Positions 1 to 61,726 of a stretch of 64,000 nt of DNA are shown piece by piece. The stretch covers positions 1 to 64,000 of IMG/VR virus record IMGVR_UViG_3300045988_093513; one strand, 5' to 3'. Position 1 is the first letter of the stretch; the number at the start of each line of letters is the position of its first letter. Below the pieces are notes generated by a model that was not told the origin of the DNA, ran no database searches, and worked only from the letters and a program-made list of their open reading frames with translations. Source of the DNA: a virus. Both the position numbers and the translations under genes were made by a program.

Positions 1-48
1 GCTAACTAATTACTATTCACAACTTACTATTCATATACTACTCTCATA

Positions 49-66
49 TACTACTACTACTACTAC
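49..66. repeat. (TAC)6 microsatellite in the 5' noncoding leader
   Basis: Six perfect tandem TAC units read directly from the sequence. Confidence 0.8.
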
Positions 67-268
67 TCTATACATATTACTTAAAAGGTGGGCTAATAAA
101 TAATCTTTCGCCGTTTTACATTAGGCTTTTCGCCACTTTTCACCACGAATTAAATTCGATTCCCACGAAGAAACATCGGCTTTTTCCCTTATATCTAGCG
201 ATTTCTCCGTATGGCTTTTCCTCAATAGTGCGTAGTGCAGGTGCACGAAACTATGGGGAAAACTGGAG

Positions 269-297
269 GTTGACAATCCACCGAAAGTTGACAATCC
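269..297 (+). promoter_or_regulatory. Direct repeat GTTGACAATCC x2 (at 269-279 and 287-297), each containing a TTGACA -35-like box. Possible promoter or operator.
   Basis: Two identical 11-mers 7 nt apart. A weak -10-like CATAGT lies 17 nt after the second TTGACA. Confidence 0.3.
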
Positions 298-383
298 CCA
301 CTTGAGCTTACATAGTGACCTGTCGAAAGTTGGCGGGTAGTCGACGGACGGCATACAACTAAACATCCTACGTGTAGTAGCTA

Positions 384-449
384 GAGGCTATCTATTTAAC
401 TCTCTAGCCACTGGCTATTACGCATGGGATAAGAGCTTGAGATAGCCCA
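384..449. repeat. Inverted repeat GAGGCTATCT...AGATAGCC flanking the nested palindrome TAGCCAcTGGCTA. Candidate operator or origin-like element.
   Basis: Read from the sequence. The region lacks a credible ORF. Confidence 0.35.
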
Positions 450-701
450 GCATTTCATACGTAAAGTGCTGGTCAACGTCAACAGAGCCAGCTATTAACG
501 CCTAAACAGTGGGGGTGAAGCGTACTCTTCACATCTACTTACGGATAAGTTATTAGCAAACCCTGGTTATTCTGGTTGAGTGAATAACAGTGAACGAGTG
601 CCTAAACCAATACTTGGGAGCACTATGTAGTTTTTCCAGCGGGTCTTTTCCTGATAAAAGCCTGCTTCCATTGTGTTAATTTTGCGTTGTTTTTATAGGG
701 G

Positions 702-899
702 GTGATTATTATGGCGTTAAAAGATATCGTGAAGGTTTCATGTACAAACTTCAAGGTATACGTGGGGGATAAGATGGTTTATTCCCCATTTAATGGTGTA
801 TTGGCACCGTTTTGGGATAAAAGAGTCCTCTGGATTGACTCAGCGGGTGATATTCTTCTGATTGGTATTGAAGGGAGTGATGAAGATGAGGAGAAATAA
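702..899 (+). CDS. Small hypothetical protein. The real start is probably the ATG at 711.
   Basis: ORF with a G-rich SD (GGGGGTGA) upstream. No recognisable domain. Confidence 0.3.
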   Translation: MIIMALKDIVKVSCTNFKVYVGDKMVYSPFNGVLAPFWDKRVLWIDSAGDILLIGIEGSDEDEEK

Positions 900-1026
900 A
901 ATCTCAATCGAGGAGCATAATGATAATGTTATGCTAGTCTTTTTGGGAACTATAATTGGAATGATTATGGTTCCGGTTTCATACCTGTTAGTAACTGTTA
1001 TGAAATAAACGAGAAAGGAGTGTGCT

Positions 1027-1494
1027 ATGGTCAAGAAAATCGATTGTAGTGTAAGTGGCTATCAGAATAGTCACTTCTTCGTAGAAGATAGCGGTATTAC
1101 CACTACAACCCTCGCTCAGATGGAAAGGTTTACAAAAGGGGATGTAACAGAGATTATCGCTCCCGTTTGGCAACTGTGTGATTCTCGTCATGAGAATCCA
1201 GTTGCTAACCTAGGTGGTATCTTCCCGAAATGCGTTGTTAATCCTATGGATACACGTAAGATGAGGGAAGAAGCCATCGAAAAAATTAAGCCGTATTACG
1301 GATTTGGGGATACCTTGTTCTGTGTAGTAACGGGGATGTCCTCAGCGTTGATTGCGTTAGTAAATGCATGCACAACGCTAGATGTGAAGCTATGTTTGCT
1401 TCACTACAATGTTGTTTACGAATGCTATCAAATGCAGCCTGTGGACAACTACTTCCTCGACAATAAGTTGAGATTAGCCGGAATACGGAGATAG
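1027..1494 (+). CDS. Hypothetical protein (155 aa)
   Basis: Strong RBS AAAGGAG 7 nt upstream of the ATG. No motif recognised. Confidence 0.5.
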   Translation: MVKKIDCSVSGYQNSHFFVEDSGITTTTLAQMERFTKGDVTEIIAPVWQLCDSRHENPVANLGGIFPKCVVNPMDTRKMREEAIEKIKPYYGFGDTLFCVVTGMSSALIALVNACTTLDVKLCLLHYNVVYECYQMQPVDNYFLDNKLRLAGIRR

Positions 1495-1590
1495 GCTTCT
1501 AAAGGGTTGTGCCTTAAACAGCCCTATTCCATGGGGAGCTTCCCCCAAAATATATTGTTTTGCCTATTAAGGCAGAAAGGAGCCATTATC

Positions 1591-1944
1591 ATGGCAGACG
1601 CAAGAATCGAGAAAAGGGATGGGAAATTATTCCTGGTCGCAGAACTGACAAAGGAAACAAGGCAGTATGCGAAAGATGGCAGAGGTCATCGTGCTGGCGA
1701 GAACTATGATACGTTCGTCGCTCATACTTCCGGCTTGGAGTACGATGGAAAGACCTATCGTTTTGACCTCTACATGCCTATGAAGGCGTGGAAATCCACA
1801 GATGATGCGACTAAGAAGAAGCTTCTTGCTACACTGAAGAAGCTTAACTCAGCTAAAGCAGCCGAAATGAAAGATGCCTCTGTGGAAGAAATTACAGAAG
1901 CCATTAAAGAGCATTTAGCTAGCATGCTCTCTGCTCTCCAGTAA
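1591..1944 (+). CDS. Hypothetical protein (117 aa). Start re-assigned to the ATG with an AAAGGAG RBS.
   Basis: The ORF track starts at 1507, but the ATG at 1591 has a consensus SD (GAAAGGAGCC). Confidence 0.45.
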   Translation: MADARIEKRDGKLFLVAELTKETRQYAKDGRGHRAGENYDTFVAHTSGLEYDGKTYRFDLYMPMKAWKSTDDATKKKLLATLKKLNSAKAAEMKDASVEEITEAIKEHLASMLSALQ

Positions 1945-1960
1945 GAAAGGTGGTATCTCT

Positions 1961-2221
1961 ATGAAATACTCCAAGATGGCTTTCGTCAAAGCTATCCTAC
2001 ACGGTTGTGCAGATAGCTATTTCATTGATGACAACGGTAATGTCCGCACTAAGACTGCAACCGTTAATCACGATAGGGTTATTGTACGGGATGGAAAGTC
2101 CCGTACAAAATACTCAATCTCTGGTTTCATGTATATGTTAGCTAGGACTATGGGTGTACAGCCCACATACGACGATGTATTAAATGGGTTAGATACCCAT
2201 GCCAATGTTTTGGCAGAATAG
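1961..2221 (+). CDS. Hypothetical protein (86 aa)
   Basis: RBS AAAGGTGG upstream. Tightly packed in the operon. Confidence 0.45.
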   Translation: MKYSKMAFVKAILHGCADSYFIDDNGNVRTKTATVNHDRVIVRDGKSRTKYSISGFMYMLARTMGVQPTYDDVLNGLDTHANVLAE

Positions 2222-2229
2222 GGGGAACT

Positions 2230-3135
2230 ATGCCAAGTTCAGAAGATTTAATGTTTGCCAATTATTCTAGCAAACTGGGGAGAATTATTACAGGGAGAAA
2301 CTGCTCCCTGTTAAAGGACGGTCGCCAGAGACGCCATTTCGGCATTGAAATCGAGGCTTGCGATTATGACCCCAATGACTATGTAGACTATGAAACTGGG
2401 GAGAATGCAAAGTATCGCCTGTTCAGTCCGTTTGACGGGATGGATAGTCTTGGGCAGATTAAGGATGATTGCTCCTTAGTCGGGAACCATTTCGAGTTTA
2501 TAACAGCCCCGATGACCATGGAGTTACTGAAGGGGCTTAATTGGGCAGGTTTCTTCGATGTTATTAGGTCTGCTGACTATCAACAGACTGACTTCGATGA
2601 GAGTGACGCAGCTGGGATTCACGTCCACGTCAACAGGAAGTCCTTCCACCATCCATTTGAAGCTGCCGTGAACGCATTAGCGTTCATTACGGAGAATGAG
2701 GATACAATCCGTCGGTTCGCTCGTCGCTCCAAGGAACAGTGGGATAACTGGTGCAGTTCACCATACGAATTGTCCCTCTGCCCCGATAGGTTCATCAGTA
2801 AAATCAAAAATGGGGATTATAGTCAATTTGGCTATGGGTATGATTCCCGCTTACGGGTGGACGAAACAAGGTACACATCGGTCAACTTTTGTTCCCATAA
2901 CACATGGGAACTTAGGATTTTCAACTCTACGTTGAGAACTCCGGAAATGTATAATATTCTGGACTTTGCCGAAGCGTTATGGGAACTGGCAGATACGGAC
3001 CACTACGAAATGAGCCTCGAGGCTATGAGTGACAAGCTCATGGAACTTGGAAATCCTACTGCTGCCAATGAGATGTTCCATCCGCCTATAGACACCTATG
3101 CAGACTACGACTACGGTTGCGACAGAGATGACTGA
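2230..3135 (+). CDS. Amidoligase (COOH-NH2 ligase, GCS2-like) family protein
   Basis: GIEIEACD (GxExE) motif near the N-terminus. GIHVHVNRKSF motif and the amidoligase-typical layout. RBS GGGGGAAC. Confidence 0.55.
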   Translation: MPSSEDLMFANYSSKLGRIITGRNCSLLKDGRQRRHFGIEIEACDYDPNDYVDYETGENAKYRLFSPFDGMDSLGQIKDDCSLVGNHFEFITAPMTMELLKGLNWAGFFDVIRSADYQQTDFDESDAAGIHVHVNRKSFHHPFEAAVNALAFITENEDTIRRFARRSKEQWDNWCSSPYELSLCPDRFISKIKNGDYSQFGYGYDSRLRVDETRYTSVNFCSHNTWELRIFNSTLRTPEMYNILDFAEALWELADTDHYEMSLEAMSDKLMELGNPTAANEMFHPPIDTYADYDYGCDRDD

Positions 3136-3253
3136 TAAATAGTGAGCCTATTGAGTGTGGGTAACTAAGTGTGTAACGATGTTACCCATACTAATAGCCC
3201 CATTATTTAGTAGGGGTAGTATTAGTTGCTACTGGACAAAGTAGCAGAAAGAG

Positions 3254-4324
3254 GTGTCTATGTGTATTATCGCAGTATATCCAAAGGGTTTGCCGTTTAA
3301 CAATGGAGAACTCAAGAAGTGCTTTGAAAATAACCCCGATGGTGCTGGGGTTATGTGGCAAGAAAAGGGAAAGGTCCATATCAAGAAGGGCTTCATGAAA
3401 CAGAAGTCTCTGCTTAAATTCCTGAAAACCTTGCCGACAAATGTAGACAGGGTGATTCATTTCAGAATCGCCACGTCTGGTAAGGTTAGCGGTGCTTGTT
3501 GTCATCCATTTCCCGTGGCTGGAGATTTCAAACAGATGATGAAAACGGAAAGCGTGGCACCAGTTGCCTACGCTCATAACGGCGTATTGACAGATTATAC
3601 GCCCAAGGAAGGTATGAAATCCCCATTCTCAGATACGATGATTTTCGGGAAAGAGGTGCTCAATCACCTGCTTGATACAGGTATTGACCTATTTGACCCG
3701 ATTATCGATGTCATGCTTGAGGCAACCATCGACGGAGATAGAATGGTTATCATGAACGACCATGAACTCATTACTCTTGGAAAGTTTGTCACAAGCAAAA
3801 CCAGTGGTGCTCAGTATTCAAACACGTCTTACTCTTACAGTAGAAACATATTCAAATCTTACGGCTACTATGATTATTATTCCGACCCATGTGCGTCTTA
3901 TTATTCTGGTGGTTGTAGTTCTAGCAAAACTACTGGCAAGAAAGGAACAACGGATACTAAAAGCGTTACGTTGTCAAAAGGGTATAACGATAGCGACATC
4001 TGTGTTAGCTTTACCGCAGAAATTACATTCGACCCGTCAAGTAAGGCAGTTCTTGGCTACACCCGTATGGACTACGAGAATTTCGTGTACGAGAACTTGG
4101 AAGAACGTAATATCTACGGCATCGACGTTGCTATCACTGGTGTAGGAGACCATGCTATTACGTTTGAGGTAAAATGTATGGCTTACATGAGTGAAATTTG
4201 TGCACCATTCCATAACATCCACAATGGCTCGACCATTCATGACACTTGGGTAAGTAACAATAAAGAATACGCAAATATCAGTGTTGATATTGCAATATCT
4301 GATTTGTGTTTTGATAAGGAGTAA
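3254..4324 (+). CDS. Class-II (Ntn-hydrolase) glutamine amidotransferase-like protein with a C-terminal S/Y/G-rich low-complexity tail
   Basis: N-terminal MCIIAVY places a nucleophilic Cys at position 2, as in Gn-AT class II. RBS AGAAAGAGG. Confidence 0.5.
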   Translation: MSMCIIAVYPKGLPFNNGELKKCFENNPDGAGVMWQEKGKVHIKKGFMKQKSLLKFLKTLPTNVDRVIHFRIATSGKVSGACCHPFPVAGDFKQMMKTESVAPVAYAHNGVLTDYTPKEGMKSPFSDTMIFGKEVLNHLLDTGIDLFDPIIDVMLEATIDGDRMVIMNDHELITLGKFVTSKTSGAQYSNTSYSYSRNIFKSYGYYDYYSDPCASYYSGGCSSSKTTGKKGTTDTKSVTLSKGYNDSDICVSFTAEITFDPSSKAVLGYTRMDYENFVYENLEERNIYGIDVAITGVGDHAITFEVKCMAYMSEICAPFHNIHNGSTIHDTWVSNNKEYANISVDIAISDLCFDKE

Positions 4325-4341
4325 CAAGAAAGGAGAATAAC

Positions 4342-6852
4342 ATGCCTAGATACTGTAGATTTGATGATGACGTAATGTTTCACCGTTCGTTGGCAAGCAT
4401 TTTACATAAACCAAGAGCTATTGGTGTTAGACTGACTGACCCCAATCTCCACACTCTTAAACGGAACATTGCTGGCATTACATTTAATGTACAAGAATAC
4501 GTAGAAAGATATGGCACCTCGGGTTCCGGTTTCATTTGGTGTACTCAGGAAGAGTATGAACATAACTGGACCTACTTGGCGAGCGAGGTGTTACGCAGAT
4601 GCTTGCGTGTATATCCAGGTGACGAGGGTTATTCAGTTGTCCTAGCGAAAGATATGCCAAAGTTTTCGGTAGGTATTACGAAGAATTTGGATGTAGTCGT
4701 AAGAGATGCAAGTGGACGTTGGTTGTATCTTGAAAAGACAGGCAACACCATCGAATCAGTCGTGTCTGATGTTCCGCCAGAATGTGCCGTTGTTTATAGC
4801 CCTGGCAACGAGGATATAGAAAAGCGTCTCTCGACAGATAGGTATTGGGTAACTATTCGTGGTGGCAAGTACGTAATCATAAGGCCACCGCTTAACTGTC
4901 CTGATAACATCGTTGTCCCATACGGTACGTTCTTTAACTCCCGCTTCGTATTTCATGGGGACGACAGTTACCTATTTGAACCATCACCAGCAGCTCGTGT
5001 ATTGCTTATTGGGAACAGTGAACTGACAACATATCAAGCCCCAAGTTGCGGAGTATACGGACAGCTTGTACTTCACGAAGATGACGATAAAATGTATATG
5101 ACATTGACACCAGTTTATCCAGATATCTTCGGTCGTAGGATTACACGTAAATACAATGACGTAAGCGGCTCTGTGTTTCAAGAATCTTCTTATGAATTCT
5201 GTGGCTCTTTGTCTTGTCGGTTCAATTTCAACACGAGGAATGACAGGTACGTAGATTGCTTAAATGGTGACACTCTTAACATCGGAGACCGCCCTGACAT
5301 GTATAACGGGATGCCAACGAGAGGAGAAACATTTGACGACCATTTCGTGGTTGAAAATGGATTCATCCATTCTGTATGGCTTCGTATGATGTCTGTTGAC
5401 GACGATGGCAATAAAGTATACAAGAATGTAGACACAGATGATTTCGTCATGAATCTGTTGTCTAATCCCGAACCACTGTCGGGACACGCTCTGTCGTATA
5501 AAGGAGAGAATTATCGGTGGGATGGTAGAAATGCTGCGTGGATTCGTGAAGAGGATGCCATATACATTCCACCAGTGCTTAGGCATAACTCATTCGACGT
5601 ATTCACACATTGTAGATTCGTCGTTTACACGACGTGTTCTTTATGTCACGCAAAAACTATATACACCGAACGCACCGATAGGTATACGTTCATTTACTTC
5701 ATCGATGGCAAGAGATACAGTAAGTCTCTGTGTGATAATTGCCTTTATACAATTCTCCACGGTGGTATACTGGACATTCCGATTGAAGATGGTAGTGTGT
5801 TACACGTCAGTGAACGTGGACTGATTAGTTGCAACGAAGGGTATACATTGTCAAAGTGGTGGGTGTTAGATTCCGAAGAAGGAGTAGGAGAAGGTTTCAT
5901 CGATGAACACGCAATATGGGACCATGAAAGGCAAGAATGGAAACTGGAAAATGATAACGACGGTGCATTACGTCTTACCTTAACGTCAGGCGGTTACGTT
6001 ATTAGTGAACGCTACTGCACTCACGTAAACGGGTACTTCTACAAACCTGACCCCATATTTTTCAAGGATAACAACGAGGACACGCAGAAGTTCTTCGGTA
6101 TTGAACTTGAGGTTATGGATGGCGGTGAGAGTTCTCTAAACGCTAAGCGGGTATGTCATAGCCACGAGGAACTGTACGCAAAGCACGATGGTTCACTTGA
6201 TGACGGTATGGAATTAGTGTCCCACCCATGTACGGTTAGCTGGCACTTGACACATCTGTGGGATGACGTTTTATCAAAGCTCCACACGTTGCACTATCAT
6301 GCCCGTAACGGCAGTGGTATTCATGTGCACGTGTCAAAGAAGTATTGGGAAAACAATGGTGGTCTTTGCCGTATCACAAACCTGATTACATTCTGTGACA
6401 TAAACAGAGAAGCGTTAAGACTCTACGCAAATAGAGAAAGAGAGACGTTCGACCATTGGACACACGAGTACATGTCACCAAGTAATACGAAGAAAGTCGT
6501 TGTCAATGCATTGACTAATTTCGGTGATACCGAGGAAGCAATGTGTGATTTATATGACAAATACTCCAGTGTTACCAACCATTATTCCGTAGTCAACCTG
6601 AGTAACACAACTACCGTAGAGATTCGAGCATTCGCAAGTACACTAGATATACACCGCATGCACAGTATTGTCCAGTTCGTAGATGTATTGACGGAGTTAT
6701 CTACTGAGGCAACATTGGGCAACCCAATCACGTTCCAGCTTATTCAGACACGAGCACAGAGCAAAGGATACACCGAGTTATTGCAGGACCCGAAGTTTAT
6801 AAGGGCTATCGATGAAAGTAACTGTTATGTAGATACTCGTGTTTGTTCCTAG
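4342..6852 (+). CDS. Large protein (836 aa) with a C-terminal amidoligase domain
   Basis: Amidoligase motifs FFGIELEV, DGSLDDGMELVSHP and GIHVHVSKKYW. Strong RBS AAAGGAGAA. Confidence 0.55.
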   Translation: MPRYCRFDDDVMFHRSLASILHKPRAIGVRLTDPNLHTLKRNIAGITFNVQEYVERYGTSGSGFIWCTQEEYEHNWTYLASEVLRRCLRVYPGDEGYSVVLAKDMPKFSVGITKNLDVVVRDASGRWLYLEKTGNTIESVVSDVPPECAVVYSPGNEDIEKRLSTDRYWVTIRGGKYVIIRPPLNCPDNIVVPYGTFFNSRFVFHGDDSYLFEPSPAARVLLIGNSELTTYQAPSCGVYGQLVLHEDDDKMYMTLTPVYPDIFGRRITRKYNDVSGSVFQESSYEFCGSLSCRFNFNTRNDRYVDCLNGDTLNIGDRPDMYNGMPTRGETFDDHFVVENGFIHSVWLRMMSVDDDGNKVYKNVDTDDFVMNLLSNPEPLSGHALSYKGENYRWDGRNAAWIREEDAIYIPPVLRHNSFDVFTHCRFVVYTTCSLCHAKTIYTERTDRYTFIYFIDGKRYSKSLCDNCLYTILHGGILDIPIEDGSVLHVSERGLISCNEGYTLSKWWVLDSEEGVGEGFIDEHAIWDHERQEWKLENDNDGALRLTLTSGGYVISERYCTHVNGYFYKPDPIFFKDNNEDTQKFFGIELEVMDGGESSLNAKRVCHSHEELYAKHDGSLDDGMELVSHPCTVSWHLTHLWDDVLSKLHTLHYHARNGSGIHVHVSKKYWENNGGLCRITNLITFCDINREALRLYANRERETFDHWTHEYMSPSNTKKVVVNALTNFGDTEEAMCDLYDKYSSVTNHYSVVNLSNTTTVEIRAFASTLDIHRMHSIVQFVDVLTELSTEATLGNPITFQLIQTRAQSKGYTELLQDPKFIRAIDESNCYVDTRVCS

Positions 6853-8453
6853 AGAAATACCAATTAGATGGCGTTAATCTTATGAAGAGAAAGGACACAT
6901 TCATACAGGCTGACAGTATGGGTATGGGAAAGACTGCACAAGCAATCGAGTACATGAGACAAACTACCGACTGTCACTTTGTTGTAGTGTGTCCTTCTTC
7001 TCTCAAGACTAACTGGTGTCGCGAAATCAATGATTGGTTAGACATAACAGTTCAACCCGATGTCTACACGGGGAATATTATTGTGACTAACTATGAGAAA
7101 GTAGGACGCATGATAGATATGATTGGTGATTATGTGTATAATTTTAAGGGGGTAATATTTGACGAAGCACACATGATTAAAAACGTATACGCCGGCAGAA
7201 CGTATGAAGCTAAACGTCTTGTTGATAAAGTTGGCAATCCAATGATGTTGACAGGAACACCAATATTAAACAGACCCAACGATTTGCTGGGTCTATTGTA
7301 CGTTGGTGGCAAGCTATCAGAGTTCGGTGGTATTGACGCATACACACGGCGATACATTCCCAATGTTGAGAAAGATAACGCCATTTTCTATTGTAACTTT
7401 GCACACCTAGACGAGTTGCACAAAAGGATAGAACCTTTTATTTGTCGCCGTCGATGGTGTGATGTACACCGTCCAGTATTCCCGATTAAGAAAACGGAAG
7501 TTACACTAGGTAGTTTTTCTAACGTCCCATTATCATCAGTCAACATTACTAACATACAAAAGGTAGAGACTGAGGTAATGAAACGTAAACTACCATTAGT
7601 TGTACAATGGATTCAACGAGATTACGATACGCACCACGAGCCTCTGGTAGTATTTGCTAACCATAGGCAGATGATAGACGTATTAAATGCGGTGTTTCCT
7701 AATAGCACCGTAGTGTATGGTGGTATGACGTACAAAGAAAAGGAACAGAGCGTACAGAAGTTCCTTAATGGTGACGCCGATATTATCCTATGCTCACTAG
7801 CTTGTGCTGCTTGCGGACTTAATCTGGTACGTTCTCATAGAGTTGTGTTCGCTGAGTTCCCTTGGGCTAAAGGGATATACGAACAGGCTATTGCTAGATG
7901 TGCAAGACGAGGGCAGACCGAGACGATAGAAGTGTTCGCATTGATTATGGAAAACAGTTACGATAGATATAGACTAGAACAAATGAGATGGAAGTCTGCG
8001 ATAGCAGATGATATTATTGACGGACAGGACAAGAAAGATGGAAGATATTATCTCGGTAATTTACCGCATAGCGTTCTCGCTTGTCTTGAAGATGGTAGTA
8101 TAGATACGTCACCATACTTTGGCATGGACATCTACTCCGATGAATTTATAATAGCAGTCGCAGAGATGTCACGAGATTGGTTGCTTGCTAATACGCAAGT
8201 GAAAGATGACGAGGATATATACTGGGAATGTGTGTTCTGTTGTTTCACGCAGTATGTATTTGGTACGGCTGTTGACCTGTTGTTGCAAGGTTTACCATAT
8301 GATTTATCTAACCTAAGCAACATGAATTTACTGGCAGATATGTCTGGCTACGGTGTGAAAACATTGCAGACTAGATACACATGGTTTCTCAATCGTTGTA
8401 AACAGTTAGGGTTTGACCAGTCGTGGATATTCCTAGCTAGATTTCTTACATAA
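6843..8453 (+). CDS. SNF2-family helicase (DEAH-box)
   Basis: Q-motif LEKYQLDG, Walker A ADSMGMGKT, DEAH box FDEAHMIKN and motif VI QAIARCARRGQTE. The first in-frame ATG is at 6882. The track uses TTG 6843, overlapping the upstream gene's stop. Confidence 0.7.
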   Translation: MFLEKYQLDGVNLMKRKDTFIQADSMGMGKTAQAIEYMRQTTDCHFVVVCPSSLKTNWCREINDWLDITVQPDVYTGNIIVTNYEKVGRMIDMIGDYVYNFKGVIFDEAHMIKNVYAGRTYEAKRLVDKVGNPMMLTGTPILNRPNDLLGLLYVGGKLSEFGGIDAYTRRYIPNVEKDNAIFYCNFAHLDELHKRIEPFICRRRWCDVHRPVFPIKKTEVTLGSFSNVPLSSVNITNIQKVETEVMKRKLPLVVQWIQRDYDTHHEPLVVFANHRQMIDVLNAVFPNSTVVYGGMTYKEKEQSVQKFLNGDADIILCSLACAACGLNLVRSHRVVFAEFPWAKGIYEQAIARCARRGQTETIEVFALIMENSYDRYRLEQMRWKSAIADDIIDGQDKKDGRYYLGNLPHSVLACLEDGSIDTSPYFGMDIYSDEFIIAVAEMSRDWLLANTQVKDDEDIYWECVFCCFTQYVFGTAVDLLLQGLPYDLSNLSNMNLLADMSGYGVKTLQTRYTWFLNRCKQLGFDQSWIFLARFLT

Positions 8454-8469
8454 ACACGGCACACTAAAA

Positions 8470-8504
8470 GGGCGTAACTCACACGGGTTACGCCCTTTTT
8501 TTTA
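8470..8504. terminator. Bidirectional rho-independent terminator between convergent operons
   Basis: 9-bp stem GGGCGTAAC/GTTACGCCC followed by T9 on + strand and an A/T run on the other side. Confidence 0.65.
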
Positions 8505-8996
8505 TTCATTTTCTATCGTCGTGATATCTGGGTTGTGCTTATCGCCCTCAAGCTCCAGTGTTCTAAAGCGTTGTAACAAGTCATAAGTAATCTTACTATC
8601 AGTAGATATAAACTTATTCTCTGTGACTTCTCTCTTATCGGGTGCAGCAAGTCCAGCCCTGTCTAGTATATCTTTACTTGCGTTAAACCTAACGAGTTCA
8701 GAACGTGCGTTAAAGGCTAGGTCTTTTAAGTTCTCATAAATCAATGCACTATCATCAAGAAACTGCTGCCTCATTGCTTCCTGCTTATCAGTGATAAGTT
8801 CTTTCTGTACTCTAGTTAAACCTCCGGTTTTTCCTATCGCACTTCTTGCCTTCTTAATTGGTACACCGGCTGATACCTGTTCGACTACTTGAATATCATC
8901 GTCAGTAACGTAGCGTTGATAGCTTCTCCCTTTCCTGCCAGCTTTCCCATCCTTACGGTTGAAATGTTTATCACCGTATTCTTTTAGTACCGACAA
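8502..8996 (-). CDS. Basic hypothetical protein with a possible HTH DNA-binding region
   Basis: ORF with Lys/Arg-rich N-terminus and a GVPIKKARSAIGKTGG segment. Function unknown. Confidence 0.4.
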   Translation of the reverse strand: MSVLKEYGDKHFNRKDGKAGRKGRSYQRYVTDDDIQVVEQVSAGVPIKKARSAIGKTGGLTRVQKELITDKQEAMRQQFLDDSALIYENLKDLAFNARSELVRFNASKDILDRAGLAAPDKREVTENKFISTDSKITYDLLQRFRTLELEGDKHNPDITTIENE

Positions 8997-9008
8997 TAAA
9001 TCACCTCC

Positions 9009-9812
9009 CTATATAGTCATGCCAGCATCCATTGCTAACTTTAACTGTTCATTCCACATAGGATTTAAAAATCTATTCTTCGTGTCGCCACTCATTTGGC
9101 ATACAAAATATCCCATAGGTAACGGGCGTCCGCCACCCTTCTTAATGTAATCAGGATACGCCTGAAATGATGGCTGCTTAATCTCCCATACTGTTCTAAC
9201 CACTGGGCATTTAGCAAACACGTTATGTTGAATACTAATCTTTGGCGTGGCTGATGGTGCGTGCCTATGTTCTTTCCATACACAATCAGCATTGAAGTAA
9301 TCATACGCATCCTGTCTAACCATATGTCTATGTACAATGTAATGCACGTAACAATTCTTATTGACGTTGAAGTATACGATACCTTGGCTACCCTTATATA
9401 AATTTCTGTCACCTAATAGCGAGGCGACTACGCCTTCAATACTGATATATGTATCACTGTATACTCTGTCTGGATGATTACCAGATATAATTCCTAATAG
9501 TTTACCGCTATCATATAAAGGTTTAATATCATCAACGAGTGCATAGATTTGTTTATCGCCGCTCAATGTTTCCTCGATGATGCTACCTTTGCTATTCTTT
9601 GTCACCGTGTTAGTTGCATCACCGCCGATTACAACCTTCACGTTATCAGGTAAGCCACTCAAGAACTCAACCTCTTTCTTAAAATAGTCTCTGTCATTTA
9701 GCCCTTCGTGTATGTCAGATAACACAGCGAGATAACCGAAATCACCATTAACTCTACACTGTATTACGTGTTGCTTTAATGTCTCTTGAATAACTTTTTC
9801 TTGCGTAGCCAT
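9009..9812 (-). CDS. Calcineurin-like metallophosphoesterase
   Basis: Motifs LSDIHEG, GGDATN and GNHPD, matching DxH...GDxxD...GNH(D/E). Confidence 0.6.
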   Translation of the reverse strand: MATQEKVIQETLKQHVIQCRVNGDFGYLAVLSDIHEGLNDRDYFKKEVEFLSGLPDNVKVVIGGDATNTVTKNSKGSIIEETLSGDKQIYALVDDIKPLYDSGKLLGIISGNHPDRVYSDTYISIEGVVASLLGDRNLYKGSQGIVYFNVNKNCYVHYIVHRHMVRQDAYDYFNADCVWKEHRHAPSATPKISIQHNVFAKCPVVRTVWEIKQPSFQAYPDYIKKGGGRPLPMGYFVCQMSGDTKNRFLNPMWNEQLKLAMDAGMTI

Positions 9813-47397: not shown

Positions 47398-48276
47398 TCA
47401 CACTCCTTCTGCGGTAAAGAGTCCATCAATATCACCATCTGTTGCAGAGGCAATCACAAACGCGCCGCCGTAGTTATCCCAACCAATACCGTTCCATACT
47501 ACGTTATCGCCAGCCTTAATCGGAGAACCGTTAGCATCAGTGCCACCTGCCGTAGTGATATTGTACATGTCGCCTGTTTTATTCTGTGCATCTGCAGGAA
47601 GGTCGGTAAATGCATCAACAATGCCACGATAGATGACGGCCTGAGAGATGTCAGACTTCTTAGCATAGTCGGTCAGCGTAGTGGTCAGAGAAGTCTTGGA
47701 TACATAAGTGTTCGCGGCGTTGACCTTAGTTTCAAACGGAGTAACGTCAATAGTACCCTGTACTGCACTAAGTACCCCATCTACCATCTGCAAGTTAGCG
47801 CCAACTTTAATACCACCAGATGTAGTAGCGGATGCTACTGGCAGTATATATTTATTAGCGCCAACTGCTACCCCAGCCAGCTTGGTTTTTTCAGCAGAGG
47901 TGAAATCCTCTGTAGACAACTGCTTACCTTCTGCTTTGTCAACCTTTGTAGCGAGGTCGGTAGCGGCAGAAGCCTTAGTGTAATACTTGCCATCAGCAGT
48001 TGCAGTCTTCTGGTACGCAGACAGGTCAACAGACATTACACCTTCTGCACTAATAGCAACATTATCGCCACTCTTAACGCCACCAAGTGTAGTAGAATCT
48101 GCGGTCGGGAGCACGTACAAGTTTGCACCCGTGGCGATACCAGCCAGCTTAGTCTTCTCGGCAGTGGTGTAGTTGTTATCGGAAAGAACTTTAGTACCGT
48201 CTTTCTGCACAAAGATTTCCTTAGACTTCTCAAGGAAACGAGCCATTTGTGGGAGTTTAACAAATTTATCTTCCAT
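47398..48276 (-). CDS. Tail fibre protein with internal tandem repeats
   Basis: Repeated FTSAEKTKLAG(I/V)AxGANxYxLPxA..TxGGxKxG modules. The repeats are also visible at the DNA level. Confidence 0.5.
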   Translation of the reverse strand: MEDKFVKLPQMARFLEKSKEIFVQKDGTKVLSDNNYTTAEKTKLAGIATGANLYVLPTADSTTLGGVKSGDNVAISAEGVMSVDLSAYQKTATADGKYYTKASAATDLATKVDKAEGKQLSTEDFTSAEKTKLAGVAVGANKYILPVASATTSGGIKVGANLQMVDGVLSAVQGTIDVTPFETKVNAANTYVSKTSLTTTLTDYAKKSDISQAVIYRGIVDAFTDLPADAQNKTGDMYNITTAGGTDANGSPIKAGDNVVWNGIGWDNYGGAFVIASATDGDIDGLFTAEGV

Positions 48277-49787
48277 TAAATTTTCCTTTCAGCAAACAGT
48301 AAGTCAATGTCATCGTTAGTCGCGACATTGTTTGTGATATCATCAACATACTTAATAATAGTAGAGTTGTTCTGAACAACTTTATTGTCAGTGTAACTAG
48401 TGGCACGGGTATACCCTTCAATGTCACCCGTCTCTCTATTCTGAACTTCGGTGTCCAACCTATCAGACAACGCCGTATCGGAAGCCTGTAGATTATCAAC
48501 CTGTGTTCTGATGTTGGCGTTAATCTCATCGTCAGATGCCTTACGAGTGTTAATCTCGCTAGTAAGGTTACTGGAGAGTTCGCCAATCTTTTTGGTGACA
48601 TTAGCGGCTACGTTAGCATCGTTGCCAAGAGCGTCAGCTAGTTCCTTCAAGGTGTCAAGTGCTTCTGGGGCACCGCCTACCAGACTAGCAACCTTCTGGT
48701 CTGTATACAGTTTAGCAGTAGACAGAGACTCGGCAACTTTATCAGATACCTGAGCAGAAGTGTCTGCACCCATCTCAGCCAGAGTGATATCTTTCTCCGT
48801 GTTGTCGAGATACAGTACATGTAATGCACCTTTAGTTTCACCCGTCAGTTCCTTCGGTGGGTTCTGCAGGTTGTTCAACTTAGATGCCAAATCGTTAGCA
48901 GTGTTTGTTGCAGTTGTAACAGCTGCATCAACTCTCTTGGCATCAGCCTTGGCGTTTTCCATGTACGCTTCTGTGGTCTTCTCAGATTCTTTCGCAGCTT
49001 TCTGCGAAGCACTAGCGGCGTTCATGTAGTCCTGAGTGTTCTGTTCGGAAGCCTGAGCCCTACGCAGCAGTTCTGCCACGTCGTTCTTCATGTTGGACAC
49101 GTCCGTCTCGTTATCCTTGATACCCTTCAAAGTATCAATGGCTTCCTGCACTTTCTTCTTGGAGTACAAAGCCCAAGAGCGAGAGGATTGCGTTAGTCCA
49201 GTAGGAGATTCAAAGTCTGGCTCTCTGTCTGGGGTTGTTTCAGATACCGCCCATGCCTCAGCTTTATTGACACTGCGTTCGATATCAACCATTGCATCGT
49301 CATGCGCAGTCTTGATTTGTTCAAGAGAGTAGGTACGCACCTTATGAATTTTATCTTCAGCGTCACGTTCCCACTGGTCGATATTAGCTTTAGCCTGTGT
49401 CAGCAAAGAGTTGAATGTACTGGTCATGTACGTCATCTTTTCAGAGACCAGCGTGTTGATAGTGTTTACACCAGACGTACTAGCACTCTGTGTATCCTGT
49501 AGTGCTTGCTGTGCCTTCTCCGCATTTGTCTTTGTGGAGGCTTCGAGTTTCGTTACGTTCGCTTCAGAGGCTTGAATCTTTTTATAAGTAGAGTCAATGC
49601 CATCCTTGATGGAAGTAACGTCACCAAGTGCGGCACCAGCGTCCTGCGTCTTACCGTCATCATACGTAACGATAAGATGGGCTTGTTTATCTAATGCTAC
49701 ACTGGAGATACCGATACCACGTTCCCCTTTCTGTCCGTAACGTAACGTTACTTTGACAGGAGAACTGGATACAGTTACATGATTCAC
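48276..49787 (-). CDS. Coiled-coil tail fibre / needle-like structural protein (503 aa)
   Basis: Long alpha-helical, heptad-rich sequence. Start overlaps the upstream gene's stop. Confidence 0.4.
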   Translation of the reverse strand: MNHVTVSSSPVKVTLRYGQKGERGIGISSVALDKQAHLIVTYDDGKTQDAGAALGDVTSIKDGIDSTYKKIQASEANVTKLEASTKTNAEKAQQALQDTQSASTSGVNTINTLVSEKMTYMTSTFNSLLTQAKANIDQWERDAEDKIHKVRTYSLEQIKTAHDDAMVDIERSVNKAEAWAVSETTPDREPDFESPTGLTQSSRSWALYSKKKVQEAIDTLKGIKDNETDVSNMKNDVAELLRRAQASEQNTQDYMNAASASQKAAKESEKTTEAYMENAKADAKRVDAAVTTATNTANDLASKLNNLQNPPKELTGETKGALHVLYLDNTEKDITLAEMGADTSAQVSDKVAESLSTAKLYTDQKVASLVGGAPEALDTLKELADALGNDANVAANVTKKIGELSSNLTSEINTRKASDDEINANIRTQVDNLQASDTALSDRLDTEVQNRETGDIEGYTRATSYTDNKVVQNNSTIIKYVDDITNNVATNDDIDLLFAERKI

Positions 49788-50188
49788 ATGCTACCTCCTT
49801 GAGAAATACCTGGGGAAATGAATGCTTTACCGTTACAGATTCGTTTAACGTCGTGTCCGTCAAACATATTAACGTCCCAATAAAGCTCTTCCCATTCTTT
49901 ATAAGAATTACCACCAGTATCAATGGAAGCAGTTTCTTCCGCACTCAGTGATAAATTAACAATACCATTTTTAGGGTCTACATCTACCTGATGCATCTTT
50001 GCAATAACCGTGGTATCCTCGGCTGACGCTTTTACACTAGCGTAAAACTTGTAATCACTAATATCAATAGGTGTATCCTTTTCTCCCTCAAGGAGTTCAA
50101 ACTGAATATCAAAGTCTGCCCCCTGAGCGATAACGATATCAACTACTGGTACTAGCGGTGTTGCATTGTCACAGTTATGTCTGAGCAT
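49784..50188 (-). CDS. Hypothetical protein (134 aa), Ig-like composition
   Basis: ORF. Confidence 0.35.
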   Translation of the reverse strand: MLRHNCDNATPLVPVVDIVIAQGADFDIQFELLEGEKDTPIDISDYKFYASVKASAEDTTVIAKMHQVDVDPKNGIVNLSLSAEETASIDTGGNSYKEWEELYWDVNMFDGHDVKRICNGKAFISPGISQGGSM

Positions 50189-51123
50189 TGTTCACCTCCA
50201 TAATTTTTATACAAAGTGTCTATCACTCCTCCGTAATAGGCGCGTACAATCGGGCATCTACGTAAGGTTGCTTCGTCAGACATTAACGAGCATCCACCGC
50301 CACAGAACCTAAGCATATCGCATTTTGCACACATGCCCTGCTGTCTTTTAATTGTCTTATCCCATTCGCGAGAATATTCGCTTGGCTTACTCTCGTCATG
50401 GCAATTATACAAACTCCCATCTAGGTCTATATTGATAACTGTAGTTCCGTTACCGCACTTGTTGCCATAATCATATTGCCCTGTTAGTTGATACAGAGTT
50501 GAGAATATCATCGATGCTTCTGGTACTGTTGCCGTACCGTTAATGAACCTTTCTGTACAGGTACACATGTCTTTGTACAACTGGTCAACATCGACTTCCT
50601 CGAACTCCAACTGACTACTCGTAAAATTCAGAGGGAAATCAAAGTTCAAGCTAAACTCTTTATCTGGTAACAGCTCGCTTACGCGATTGATTACATCATG
50701 TACGACCGTCCATTTTGTTAGCACTGCCGAGATGCATAAGTTGTCAACGTCTTTAATGTTTGGGTTCTCTTGAAGAACATCGTATCCTCTGGTTTTCTTA
50801 CTAATTGGTCCATCCCAAGATACAGTTACACCGACATCATACTTATTCAGCCATTCTACTTTATCTTTATCTAGTAACTTACCGTTCGTTATAATGCCGT
50901 AACATAAATCAGAACGGTGAGACATGATTTCTTTAATGGCACCAAAGTACAACAGAGGCTCCCCGCCAAAAAATACGACAGGTGTTTTCGGCGGTATGGA
51001 ATGGAAGTATTCCCAGAACCTTGGTTTAATAGCTCTCGGGATTTGTCTTTCTTTAATCTGTCTCTGACAACAGTATGTACATTGTAAGTTGCAATCATTC
51101 CCTAGAATTACGAACAGTTTCAT
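50152..51123 (-). CDS. Radical SAM enzyme with a C-terminal SPASM domain
   Basis: CNLQCTYC (CxxxCxxC), GGEPLL and ITNG motifs. C-terminal CAKCDMLRFCGGGC (Cx2Cx5Cx3C). Confidence 0.65.
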   Translation of the reverse strand: MKLFVILGNDCNLQCTYCCQRQIKERQIPRAIKPRFWEYFHSIPPKTPVVFFGGEPLLYFGAIKEIMSHRSDLCYGIITNGKLLDKDKVEWLNKYDVGVTVSWDGPISKKTRGYDVLQENPNIKDVDNLCISAVLTKWTVVHDVINRVSELLPDKEFSLNFDFPLNFTSSQLEFEEVDVDQLYKDMCTCTERFINGTATVPEASMIFSTLYQLTGQYDYGNKCGNGTTVINIDLDGSLYNCHDESKPSEYSREWDKTIKRQQGMCAKCDMLRFCGGGCSLMSDEATLRRCPIVRAYYGGVIDTLYKNYGGEQCSDITVTMQHR

Positions 51124-52270
51124 ACGTCTTACCTACGCAAGCTGTAACAACTTCGCCACCCTGAATATTAAGGACGGTACGAATCAAATCCATGATATAA
51201 TCTGTTGCAAACAAGAACGTTACCGCTTCCAGTGGAATACCAACGGCTGCAAAAATAATTGCACAATCCATGAGCGTCCCGCCGATAATACCTGGAGCAC
51301 ACATCAAAGCTACAGTGGTTAATAACAATACCGTTACAATCGCCGCTACGCTTAGAGGTACTCCAAAGATGGATGAGGCGTACATAACATATACACCCAC
51401 GCAGACACACGAACCGACACGCATCAATACAGAAACGATAGGGGTGAGGTAATCAATCACTTCATGTGGAATGTCTGTATCTTTTTTCAATAATACGATA
51501 CGATTTCCGATAGTATTGGATGCGCCACCAGCAATAGCGTTAGCAACGTCCTCTACAAAGATAGCTCTCAGGAACGATGCCCCATCTACTTTGTGCAAGT
51601 AAAGGACGGGAAGTGACGCAAGTAAAGTAAACAATACAACCCCAACAATCAGTGTACCAAACATGCATACATAACTCTGTAATACGCCAAGACCAAATTT
51701 AACCACAACAGGGTACAGCAATGCGAATACTCCAACAGGTGCGATATACATGATGCAGTTAGCAATTTTCAGAAAGACGTGCTGGATAATACCAAGGGCG
51801 TGTGCGATAGAACTCTTATATGCACTTGTCCGCCCAACTAAACCTACCATGATTGCTAACGTTACAATCTGTAACATGTTACCCGTCGCAAACGAGTGAA
51901 CAATATTGACAGGGATACAGCCGTTGATGAACGACAGCACTGTAGGAGCCTGTACAGCGACCGTATTTGTTGCGGTTACGACAAACGTAGGTACACCAAT
52001 TACCCACGTTAATCCTAACCCTAACGCGACACCAATTACACTCAAGCCAAACATTAAGATAAAGGCGTGTACCGATACCTTTTGTCCATCATGCATATCG
52101 ATAATCGCTTTCGCGATAGACGCAAATGCTAACGGAACAACACACACCTTGAGTAACGACGTAAACATAGTGCCCAATTCTTTGAGGGGGTACTGTAACC
52201 ACGCGACATCTCCAAACACAAGCCCTAAACAAAGTGCTAACGCAATAGAGATTGCAATATTCCTATACAT
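51095..52270 (-). CDS. Sodium:dicarboxylate/amino-acid symporter (SDF, GltP/GltT-like) family membrane protein
   Basis: About 8 TM plus re-entrant segments. Motifs KVCVVPLAFASIAKAI, YIAPVGVFALL and DLIRTVLNIQGGEVVTACV match SDF signatures. Confidence 0.5.
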   Translation of the reverse strand: MYRNIAISIALALCLGLVFGDVAWLQYPLKELGTMFTSLLKVCVVPLAFASIAKAIIDMHDGQKVSVHAFILMFGLSVIGVALGLGLTWVIGVPTFVVTATNTVAVQAPTVLSFINGCIPVNIVHSFATGNMLQIVTLAIMVGLVGRTSAYKSSIAHALGIIQHVFLKIANCIMYIAPVGVFALLYPVVVKFGLGVLQSYVCMFGTLIVGVVLFTLLASLPVLYLHKVDGASFLRAIFVEDVANAIAGGASNTIGNRIVLLKKDTDIPHEVIDYLTPIVSVLMRVGSCVCVGVYVMYASSIFGVPLSVAAIVTVLLLTTVALMCAPGIIGGTLMDCAIIFAAVGIPLEAVTFLFATDYIMDLIRTVLNIQGGEVVTACVGKTYETVRNSRE

Positions 52271-52278
52271 GTATCCTC

Positions 52279-53265
52279 CTATAAATCTAACGCTTGCGCA
52301 ACGTCACTCCACAATAACTTTGGGTTTTCGAGCCCAATAGAAAGTCTAGCACAGAACCCTTGCGGATACCGTTCCTTACTTCTGAAGAAATCAGCGATAG
52401 AGTAAGTGCACCCGAAAGTTCCAACAGTCTTAAACTGTTTCAATCGCTTGCAGAACTCTTCTGTTTTTCCTGGTAGTGTAATTAAGCCACCACATCCAGG
52501 CCACAAGCAATCTACACCAGCTTCCTTGAGATTATCATAAATGTATGCTGCGCCATCTGTGTGCATAATCATTCTGCACGCCAATGTCTGCAACCCACGA
52601 CTAACCATGTACGCTTTATCTGGAGATACGCAGTTACCACGATGGGCGATAACCCACGACAAGTTATCCTGTCCTGGGTTTGCGAGTGGAACTGGCTTCT
52701 GTTCTAACCATCGCATGGTATCGGCAAAACATAAACCACCTGCCACTACATCGCCATAACCGCACACATATTTAGTATAAGACTCAATACATACATCGGC
52801 TCCATTCTTAATTGGATTCGAGTAATGGAGAGACACGATTGAGTTGTCTACCGCCAAGATACCGTTATAACGATGAGTTGTATCCGCCAGTGTTTGTACG
52901 TCATACCACTTAGCAAATGTTGTTGGGTTATCAATGATTACTAACACAGTTCCTTTAGAGGTGGCTAGAACGATTTCTAGGTCAGGCAACTGACCGACAT
53001 CTTTTAATTGAACGGTATTGATATTCTTATAGTGCAACCAATCACGTGTTTCAAAATATGTTTCGTCGTCGACAATAACTACATCTGGTTGCAAAATATC
53101 TAGGAGGGTTACAATAGCCTCCTGACCACTGTTACACAAAACTGTACGCCATCCTCCATAGAGTTTTGTCAGTTCCTCTTCCACCTGCCTAATAGGCATG
53201 TTGTGTGTTCTTACATATCGTCCAGTATTGTCACTAACGACGTTCATGTCAATAGTTGGTAACAT
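52279..53265 (-). CDS. PLP-dependent enzyme of the Cys/Met-metabolism (cystathionine gamma-synthase/lyase) family
   Basis: LCNSGQEAI and ESYTKYVCGYGDVVAG (SxTKY..GH.D-like PLP-lysine motif). Confidence 0.5.
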   Translation of the reverse strand: MLPTIDMNVVSDNTGRYVRTHNMPIRQVEEELTKLYGGWRTVLCNSGQEAIVTLLDILQPDVVIVDDETYFETRDWLHYKNINTVQLKDVGQLPDLEIVLATSKGTVLVIIDNPTTFAKWYDVQTLADTTHRYNGILAVDNSIVSLHYSNPIKNGADVCIESYTKYVCGYGDVVAGGLCFADTMRWLEQKPVPLANPGQDNLSWVIAHRGNCVSPDKAYMVSRGLQTLACRMIMHTDGAAYIYDNLKEAGVDCLWPGCGGLITLPGKTEEFCKRLKQFKTVGTFGCTYSIADFFRSKERYPQGFCARLSIGLENPKLLWSDVAQALDL

Positions 53266-53273
53266 ACATTCTC

Positions 53274-61569: not shown

Positions 61570-61726
61570 TAACCATGCAAAATTTGTTCGTTAAATAACG
61601 AGGTTTTACACGGTTTTGACGAAATTAACTGGCACGGATTGCTAGAATCGAACTAGCGAATTGCTGGGTCAAAGCCAGCCGCCTTCACCACTTGGCTAAA
61701 CCCGTATCACTATTTGTATAAGAAAA

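Follow-up and report, generated by a model that had tools for sequence, protein, structure and literature searches.

An amidoligase and glutamine amidotransferase-like gene module, with an SNF2 ATPase downstream, in an uncultured human gut phage

Known amidoligase and amidotransferase pairs and the gut-phage locus

The pairing of an amidoligase with a class II glutamine amidotransferase (GATase) has been noted in phages and mobile elements since 2009. The locus described here is a version of this pair from a gut phage, in which two amidoligase genes, a GATase-like gene and a gene for an SNF2-family ATPase are grouped on the + strand within a 64,000-nucleotide (nt) stretch of DNA (positions 1 to 64,000 of IMG/VR virus record IMGVR_UViG_3300045988_093513, hereafter the window). 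One described setting of the pair is the podovirus cassette of LUZ24 (gp14-gp23), phiEco32, tf, RIO-1 and CW02, which shares with the gut-phage locus an Amidoligase_2 protein, a class II GATase and a location between small upstream genes and the replication genes. In LUZ24 the cassette further encodes a COOH-NH2 ligase, an enzyme of the ATP-grasp type and a gamma-glutamyl cyclotransferase. According to later papers, Iyer et al. (2009) and Hardies et al. (2013) predicted that the cassette modifies the cell wall or peptides so as to block superinfection. Phage genome papers either credit Iyer et al. 2009 with a prediction of peptide or cell-wall modification, perhaps as a superinfection block, or class the genes with nitrogen metabolism (PMC10580990, PMC5498523, PMC11318856, PMC10945688). 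In Firmicutes prophages the amidoligase is partnered instead by a gamma-glutamyl cyclotransferase (PMC3485107, PMC11318856).

The pair is found with no adjacent SNF2 gene in mycobacteriophage Marvin (gp105/gp106), in Firmicutes integrative elements and in LUZ24 (gp18/gp19), and OM43 phages also carry an amidoligase and GATase pair (PMC10580990). Marvin gp105 is homologous to amidoligase A, the stand-alone ligase of the gut phage, at 2.5e-14, and gp106 is an N-terminal nucleophile (Ntn) GATase with a Met-Cys start (4e-9). The Firmicutes elements have the order DUF960-amidoligase-(56 amino acids, aa)-GATase_6, adjoining integrase and relaxase genes. With this mobile-element pair (Marvin, the OM43 phages MEP401/402 and the Firmicutes elements) the gut-phage locus shares homologous amidoligase catalytic domains (E 1e-14 to 1e-23) and adjacent, co-oriented genes that lie at element ends or in apparent early regions. 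It differs in having two amidoligase paralogues rather than one, in a GATase with an added linker and ferredoxin-like C-terminal domain, and in an SNF2 gene coupled downstream. Moreover, one of the two paralogues carries an orphan region of ~545 aa, where a short LIM or zinc-finger N-terminus is common in the Firmicutes proteins. In a Firmicutes element with a homologous pair, the integrase is followed by a dnd-type phosphorothioation cluster (L016 11011-15110, L017 5421-9520) with a PAPS-reductase-like DndC, an SMC-like DndD, DndE and a cysteine desulfurase, which is probably an adjacent island and not a functional link.

Pairwise comparison with the LUZ24 cassette proteins gp12-gp23 found nothing past the family level, and the LUZ24 GATase, at ~510 aa, differs from the 195-aa catalytic domain and unrelated tail of the gut-phage protein. 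All window open reading frames (ORFs) of at least ~75 aa were scanned batchwise against Pfam, 37 unrelated ones being combined in a pseudo-alignment, and many were also compared with PHROGs. COOH-NH2_lig (PF14395), ATP-grasp (RimK-like) and gamma-glutamyl cyclotransferase were not found in any of these scanned ORFs.

Four distant homologues of the GATase (~35-50% identity) were checked and all lie on gut-phage contigs, three of which have an SU10-type portal in the stretch retrieved. The + strand operon of these sister clades holds one or two large amidoligases (433-616 aa), a GATase (285-324 aa) and a shorter orthologous SNF2, in a variable gene order and sometimes with small ORFs between. 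The catalytic domains, the GATase N-domain and the SNF2 protein are orthologous, while the N-terminal extensions of the large amidoligases differ. In one of the Firmicutes integrative elements (L018) a DEAD/SNF2-like gene lies ~5 kb from the pair on the opposite strand. In Clostridioides difficile phage AR1086-1 an amidoligase is present but the next ORF is no homologue of this GATase. Among viral models, Foldseek found amidoligases that bear various extensions in crAss-like, Pseudomonas, Arthrobacter, Vibrio and other phages. The two-enzyme core is a general mobile-element module, to which SNF2 is joined in a single phage lineage. The locus is a lineage-specific variant of this known, uncharacterised amidoligase and class II GATase module of phages and integrative elements. 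What is new in it is the presence of two Amidoligase_2 paralogues, one with the orphan region, the ferredoxin-like GATase tail, the lack of ATP-grasp and cyclotransferase partners and the SNF2 gene downstream. The features of the locus and of the rest of the window are collected in Table 1.

Table 1. Features of the module and of its genome setting, in window coordinates
Feature	Position	Strand	Remarks
ORF, 155 aa	1027-1494	+	upstream of cluster; conserved in all relatives
Small ORF, 117 aa	1591-1944	+	one of a pair of small ORFs directly upstream of amidoligase A
Small ORF, 86 aa	1961-2221	+	directly upstream of amidoligase A
Amidoligase A, stand-alone Amidoligase_2, 301 aa	2230-3135	+	Pfam PF12224
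Structured spacer/leader, ~125 nt	3136-3259	+	three stem-loops; ends at GATase Shine-Dalgarno and ATG
Stand-alone Ntn (class II) GATase-like protein, 354 aa	3260-4324	+	
GATase catalytic domain, aa 1-195	3260-3844	+	
GATase linker, aa 196-243		+	disordered, Tyr/Ser-rich
GATase C-terminal domain, aa 244-354	3989-4321	+	ferredoxin/ACT-like
836-aa protein	4342-6852	+	
Orphan N-terminal region, aa 1 to ~545 of 836-aa protein	4342-5976	+	
Amidoligase B, C-terminal Amidoligase_2 domain, aa ~557-836 of 836-aa protein	6010-6852	+	
SNF2-family DEAH ATPase, 536 aa	6843-8453	+	helicase core aa 1-400
SNF2 C-terminal extension, aa 401-536	8043-8450	+	acidic; no family match
Bidirectional intrinsic terminator	8466-8499	.	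strong; 15-bp stem, A and T runs either side (terminator scan)
ThyX-like protein, 221 aa	12579-13244	-	Pfam Thy1 E 2e-4 (below cut-off); phrog_6721 2e-30
Giant ORF, 4034 aa	24858-36962	-	no Pfam domain at E <= 0.001
Radical SAM enzyme	50152-51123	-	Cys-rich SPASM-like tail; PF04055 1e-8, phrog_1802 1e-32
Sodium:dicarboxylate/amino-acid symporter family membrane transporter	51095-52270	-	PF00375 5e-51
Cys/Met-metabolism pyridoxal phosphate (PLP) enzyme	52279-53265	-	PF01053 3e-34
QueC-like PP-loop ATPase	53274-54236	-	SGGLDS and CGVCSNC motifs; phrog_1550 1e-5
tRNA-Gln, anticodon TTG	61630-61705	-	single; among structural genes
SU10-type portal gene with LAGLIDADG-type intein	62563-63999, continuing past window end (L001 1-2484)	-	

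The four proteins and the RNA leader

The original prediction, made from the sequence before any database search, had placed four genes here, and both the ORF calls and the conserved order in relatives bear them out. The order of the four genes is retained in every relative of the phage that was examined, down to 48% identity, and therefore the arrangement is not due to chance. Searches with profile hidden Markov models (HMMs), together with other evidence for the two assignments that fell below the Pfam cut-offs, also upheld the proposed amidoligases, class II GATase and SNF2 protein.

Amidoligase A matches Pfam Amidoligase_2 above the family cut-off (E 5e-8, 33.5 bits; cut-off 22 bits), in line with its proposed identity as a stand-alone amidoligase, and it also matches phrog_22302, phrog_16683 and phrog_2443, all of which are annotated as 'amidoligase'. 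For the C-terminal domain of the 836-aa protein, here called amidoligase B, the Pfam match (residues 610-781; E 1.6e-3, 18.8 bits) is under the 22-bit cut-off. The assignment is backed, however, by a match to phrog_16683 at 2e-30, by paralogy with the 301-aa protein (E 5e-13) and by invariant catalytic residues, and many full-length homologues of the 836-aa protein bear a precomputed PF12224 hit. The residue pattern of amidoligase B is E588-x-E590, E624, H661/H663 and E760-x-R762, which is invariant in 21 homologues; the alignment of the two paralogues gives E40-x-E42, E89, H131/H133 and E227-x-R229 for amidoligase A. We take these ExE, E, H and ExR residues to have catalytic roles by analogy with Escherichia coli GshA. 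Both ligase domains look catalytically competent, because both keep this pattern of the glutamine synthetase/glutamate-cysteine ligase (GS/GCL) superfamily. The fold is of the GS/GCL type, with YbdK and the glutamate-cysteine ligases as the nearest solved structures.

The gene that lies between the two amidoligase genes was listed with a GTG start at 3254, and the resulting 356-aa translation matches Pfam GATase_4 below the cut-off (E 3.5e-4, 20 bits; cut-off 23 bits). Since this GTG falls within the Shine-Dalgarno stretch AGAGGTG, the start is placed at ATG 3260, with the Shine-Dalgarno AGAGG 6-7 nt upstream and a protein that begins MCIIAV. Gene callers in relatives also give a 354-aa protein. 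The corrected start provides the Met-Cys terminus expected of the Ntn-type enzyme with a Cys2 nucleophile that had been proposed, and the fold and pocket agree with it: the Ntn fold is modelled with high confidence, its nearest relatives are GlmS-N, EgtC and YafJ-type proteins, and Cys2, Arg69, Asn107-Gly108 and Asp125 are invariant across 58 homologues. About 1,800 homologues of the N-domain were found, whilst the C-domain is variable. There is no fused synthase domain, the catalytic domain being followed instead by the linker and a ferredoxin-like domain of ~110 aa, and for this reason the protein is labelled GATase-like and an EgtC-like hydrolase role is considered. The stand-alone solved relatives among its matches are EgtC, which is an amidohydrolase, and two uncharacterised YafJ-type proteins.

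The spacer in front of the GATase-like gene is predicted to fold into a stable RNA (-44.3 kcal/mol, z = -5.3). Relatives whose proteins share only 48-57% identity still have almost the same spacer sequence, and 2 of its base pairs show compensatory changes. In relatives L002 and L003, extra ORFs of 40 aa and 205 aa are inserted upstream of the leader, which stays joined to the GATase gene. The leader occurs once in the window and has no match in Rfam (search of window positions 1-9000), and its covariance model (R1) finds it only in its own family and not in the sister clades. It may serve as an RNA element in regulation or processing.

The orphan region of the 836-aa protein is acidic and rich in beta structure. 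Many of its Trp, Cys, Pro and Gly residues are invariant, and from this conservation the region is judged to be under constraint. It contains a CxxCH...CxxC zinc-ribbon-like motif at aa 432-467 (5635-5742), and comparison of the region with itself found no internal repeats. The statement in the original prediction that the first ~550 aa match nothing recognisable agrees with every search made: no match was found in Pfam, PHROGs, NCBIfam, PADLOC or PDB profile searches, and an HMM of the region run against 1.84 billion representative proteins gave only 5 matches, all from the same family. The structure prediction that had been suggested for this region was less informative. With no more than about 27 close homologues to draw on, the model of the 836-aa protein was poor (predicted local distance difference test, pLDDT, 59.6), and its N-terminal part gave no credible fold match. 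Homology to the widespread Firmicutes 'amidoligase family proteins' of 365-480 aa starts only at residue ~545-558, and the orphan region is not homologous to the N-extensions of the sister-clade amidoligases. The 836-aa protein, with a net charge of about -34, is acidic throughout and has no basic segment.

The last gene of the operon encodes the SNF2 DEAH helicase that had been proposed to follow the 836-aa gene directly. Both Pfam domains are above their cut-offs (SNF2-rel_dom, PF00176, 2e-23, 83 bits; Helicase_C, PF00271, 4e-13, 50 bits), the protein matches the DNA helicase family phrog_62 at 2e-67, and the motifs GMGKT (Walker A) and FDEAHM (DEAH box) are present in the sequence. The probable start is TTG 6843, which gives a 10-nt overlap with the stop of the 836-aa gene; it is favoured because ATG 6882, the start in one gene call, would cost the protein its N-terminal YQLDGV SNF2 motif. 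The orthologues in the sister clades are 339-394 aa in length (E 1e-58 to 1e-62) and are without the C-terminal extension. Comparison with DpdE, DrmD and ZorD gave generic matches only, far under the family cut-offs, and a PADLOC scan for likeness to defence systems likewise returned only generic SNF2 matches.

Upstream of amidoligase A, the 117-aa and 86-aa ORFs are unchanged in position and size in relatives L001, L002 and L003 and have no family match in Pfam, PHROGs, NCBIfam or PADLOC; their membership of the module is uncertain. The 155-aa ORF further upstream bears the motif APVWQLC(D/E)SRH-NP-ANMGG-FP-C and has no family match in Pfam, PHROGs or PADLOC.

Predicted chemistry, candidate targets and the DNA question

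The reading that we favour, tentatively and with a probability a little short of even, is that the module forms gamma-glutamyl-type amide bonds on a host target and trims them, and that lineage synteny accounts for the presence of the SNF2 gene. The phage would express the module from a strand-separated, apparently early operon. With ATP, the two paralogous ligases would convert a carboxylate to an acyl-phosphate, which would then be joined to an amine, as in YbdK, glutamate-cysteine ligase and PafA. The pocket of the GATase-like protein (Cys2, Arg69, Asn107-Gly108 and Asp125) would take a free gamma-glutamyl group, and the protein would either free ammonia from glutamine for amidation or cut gamma-glutamyl-X bonds in the manner of EgtC. 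The net outcome would be the writing and trimming of gamma-glutamyl-type amide (isopeptide) bonds, since ligase chemistry is here combined with a gamma-glutamyl-binding Ntn pocket. This type of chemistry, which is deduced from family knowledge, is preferred because EgtC, the one solved stand-alone relative among the matches whose chemistry is known, is a hydrolase, and because the alternative partner in Firmicutes prophages, gamma-glutamyl cyclotransferase, also breaks gamma-glutamyl-amine bonds. From the logic of the ergothioneine enzymes EgtA/EgtC, and of YbdK/GCL with gamma-glutamyl hydrolases, the locus differs in that its proteins are not members at the sequence level, further ergothioneine genes are absent and the setting is a phage.

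As regards the target, the variable, lineage-specific extensions of the ligases and the GATase suggest the recognition of a host-specific macromolecule, on which the fast-evolving orphan region of ~545 aa would most likely dock the 836-aa enzyme. Since the N-termini of the module proteins, judged by reading the sequences, resemble neither signal peptides nor membrane segments, the target may be cytoplasmic, and a protein or a cell-wall precursor peptide would be favoured over DNA. DNA is disfavoured by the acidity of all parts of the 836-aa protein and by the absence of an SNF2 gene beside the pair outside the lineage. The SNF2 protein would be an ordinary phage helper in DNA remodelling or replication, which travels with the module through synteny and translational coupling and not through shared chemistry. 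What the analysis establishes are the folds, the catalytic residues, their conservation and the gene contexts. Both the target and the purpose, be it host takeover, superinfection exclusion or counter-defence, are guesses in every reading discussed here. A bolder form of the same idea, which we regard as unlikely, is a phage writer/eraser system in which isopeptide marks are placed on a host macromolecule chosen by the orphan domain and are later trimmed, as a counterpart of PafA/Dop that serves takeover or counter-defence in gut bacteria; in a variant, the marks would be placed on phage DNA with the help of SNF2 and would form a new class of base hypermodification.

The nearest solved folds of the module proteins (YbdK and glutamate-cysteine ligases; EgtC and GlmS-N) are all small-molecule enzymes, and this raises the question of whether there is a macromolecular target at all. 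The module could instead serve auxiliary metabolism, in which a free gamma-glutamyl compound, such as a glutathione-like peptide or a gamma-glutamyl amine, is made or recycled, or glutamine/glutamate nitrogen is shifted, in aid of phage replication. Phage papers do class such genes as auxiliary metabolic genes for nitrogen and amino acids (PMC10945688, PMC10580990), and the phage carries a transporter of the Na+:dicarboxylate/amino-acid symporter family. The published metabolic claims rest, however, on annotation. Moreover, an orphan extension of ~545 aa that is swapped for unrelated ones in sister clades is hard to fit with a universal metabolite as substrate, and integrase-proximal element ends and apparent early phage regions are locations that fit host conflict better than housekeeping. 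A purely metabolic role therefore seems improbable to us.

Two paralogues within one operon also bring to mind PafA and Dop. In a pupylation-like scheme, one GS-fold paralogue would act as ligase and the other as deamidase or eraser, the Ntn hydrolase would convert a C-terminal Gln to an exposed Glu or remove tags, and a small phage or host protein would be ligated to host proteins, which would thereby be redirected or destroyed. The conserved small ORFs just upstream offer candidate tags, and Iyer et al. 2009, as cited in later papers, proposed that such amidoligases act in peptide tagging. Yet these ORFs end in ...SALQ and ...VLAE, with no Gly-Gly-Gln/Glu, and their ends vary in relatives, so that nothing resembles a Pup-like substrate. 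Furthermore, the similarity to PafA/Dop is no stronger than that to GCL or YbdK, no proteasome or AAA partner genes were seen, and both paralogues keep the full set of ligase residues, such that neither looks specialised as an eraser. A scheme of this kind is considered quite unlikely.

The original prediction had gone in another direction and suggested, from the literature, that the module makes hypermodified DNA bases. According to this proposal the amidoligases would attach an amino acid or an amide to a base that bears a carboxyl or amine group, in DNA or in the nucleotide pool, the GATase would supply ammonia or glutamate and SNF2 would move along or open the phage DNA. The literature link has a basis, in that Lee et al. 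2021 report some metagenomic contigs in which thymidine hypermodification genes are accompanied by amidoligase and amidotransferase genes, as accessories left unexplained (PMC8989533). The SNF2 gene is translationally coupled to the 836-aa gene and belongs to the same operon in the sister clades, and SNF2-like proteins do act in DNA-modification systems, as the generic matches to DpdE and DrmD recall, these being far below the family cut-offs. The ThyX-like protein, in which the RHR signature reads RYH, could be a divergent thymidylate synthase or an enzyme for another pyrimidine substrate.

The genes that define base hypermodification were, however, not found in the ORFs scanned. No dUMP/dCMP hydroxymethylase, Thymidylat_synt or TET/JBP protein was found in the scanned ORFs, nor any DpdA/TGT, base-modifying transglycosylase, glycosyltransferase or DNA methyltransferase. 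The comparison with thymidine hypermodification clusters (Lee et al. 2018/2021) that had been proposed came out negative too, as 5-HMUDK and aGPT-Pplase were not detected by Pfam or PHROGs in the scanned ORFs, a result that very divergent homologues could escape by hiding among ORFs with no match, such as 8502-8996 and 9009-9812 (at least 100 aa) and the 4034-aa ORF, which have no Pfam match. The stretch of genome not covered by the window encodes terminase, a TSCPD protein and the portal. What the gut phage has in common with these clusters is the amidoligase and amidotransferase genes and, elsewhere in the genome, PLP and radical SAM enzymes, but the defining kinase, pyrophosphorylase and precursor enzymes were not found, leaving only the divergent ThyX-like ORF.

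The genes for the PLP and radical SAM enzymes lie apart from the amidoligase genes, within a metabolic island of four genes (50152-54236, - strand), which is ~42 kb from the module and on the other strand, between tail-fibre-like genes (48276-49787 and 54226-56184). The island could be a sulfur- or amide-transfer pathway, and close relatives L014 and L015 carry at least its QueC-like gene. A transporter gene is unusual in a phage.

The same pair is also present in integrative elements and temperate phages that have neither such a pathway nor an adjacent SNF2 gene, which argues against a chemistry dedicated to virion DNA, and an 836-aa protein that is acidic in all its segments is unlike the usual DNA-binding targeting domain. 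The SNF2 gene had been taken as a sign of a DNA-directed process, but because its association with the module is limited to a single gut-phage lineage it can be explained by inherited synteny. The DNA proposal is accordingly held to be quite unlikely; it keeps a low probability through the SNF2 coupling retained across the lineage, the divergent ThyX-like gene and the island with its radical SAM, PLP and QueC-like enzymes. The annotation in the original prediction was correct, both in its domain assignments and in its orphan N-terminus, whereas the functional step to DNA hypermodification went beyond the evidence and is unsupported.

Several points nevertheless weigh against the gamma-glutamyl reading that we favour. 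The type of reaction is extrapolated from distant relatives, and no substrate, carrier peptide or target of the module was identified in the analysis. Literature text searches found no experimental or biochemical study of Amidoligase_2 or of this GATase subfamily, and it is from the gene arrangement that the operon is inferred to be early. Moreover, SNF2 is kept in the amidoligase and GATase operon by clades whose GATases share only ~35-50% identity, and it overlaps the GATase gene directly in clade L012 as it overlaps the 836-aa gene here; a position retained in this way could reflect a real functional link. Finally, the phage has PLP, radical SAM and QueC-like PP-loop enzymes, as do thymidine hypermodification contigs (PMC8989533).

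Genome setting and significance

The source phage is an uncultured tailed phage of ~69 kb from a human gut metagenome, and an 836-aa protein that is 100% identical is encoded on a 68,912-bp contig of run ERR1190694. The ~5 kb of the genome that lie beyond the window encode terminase, the TSCPD protein and portal. When the cluster was compared at the nucleotide level with 50,697 phage records, no match came up. The gene content includes an SU10-type portal and capsid, a PolIII-alpha replicase, a primase-DnaB fusion, Rad52 and a class II ribonucleotide reductase. The + strand genes run from before position 1 up to 8453 and nearly all remaining genes are on the - strand, the terminator separating the + strand operon from the convergent - strand genes. 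The portal is ~1015 aa in this phage and in L002; in relative L003 it is 674 aa, with no LAGLIDADG hit recorded. As the - strand is read, the 4034-aa ORF is immediately preceded by the gene for a 491-aa transglycosylase (SLT), and because of this position it may encode an injected or virion-associated giant protein.

Few 'known unknowns' of phages and integrative elements are as widespread as the amidoligase and class II GATase genes, which are present in LUZ24, phiEco32, Marvin, crAss-like phages, OM43 phages and Firmicutes integrative and conjugative elements, and the only functional statements found in the literature are predictions of the 2009 era repeated in genome papers. Nothing shown here would surprise a specialist, but the module is both widespread and unexplained and is hence worth an experiment. 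The gut-phage lineage offers a compact test case, with two ligases, one hydrolase, an orphan docking domain, an RNA leader and variable targeting regions. Should a component of host defence or of the envelope turn out to be the target, a very common accessory module would at last have an explanation; should the target be DNA, phage base modification would gain a new chemistry.

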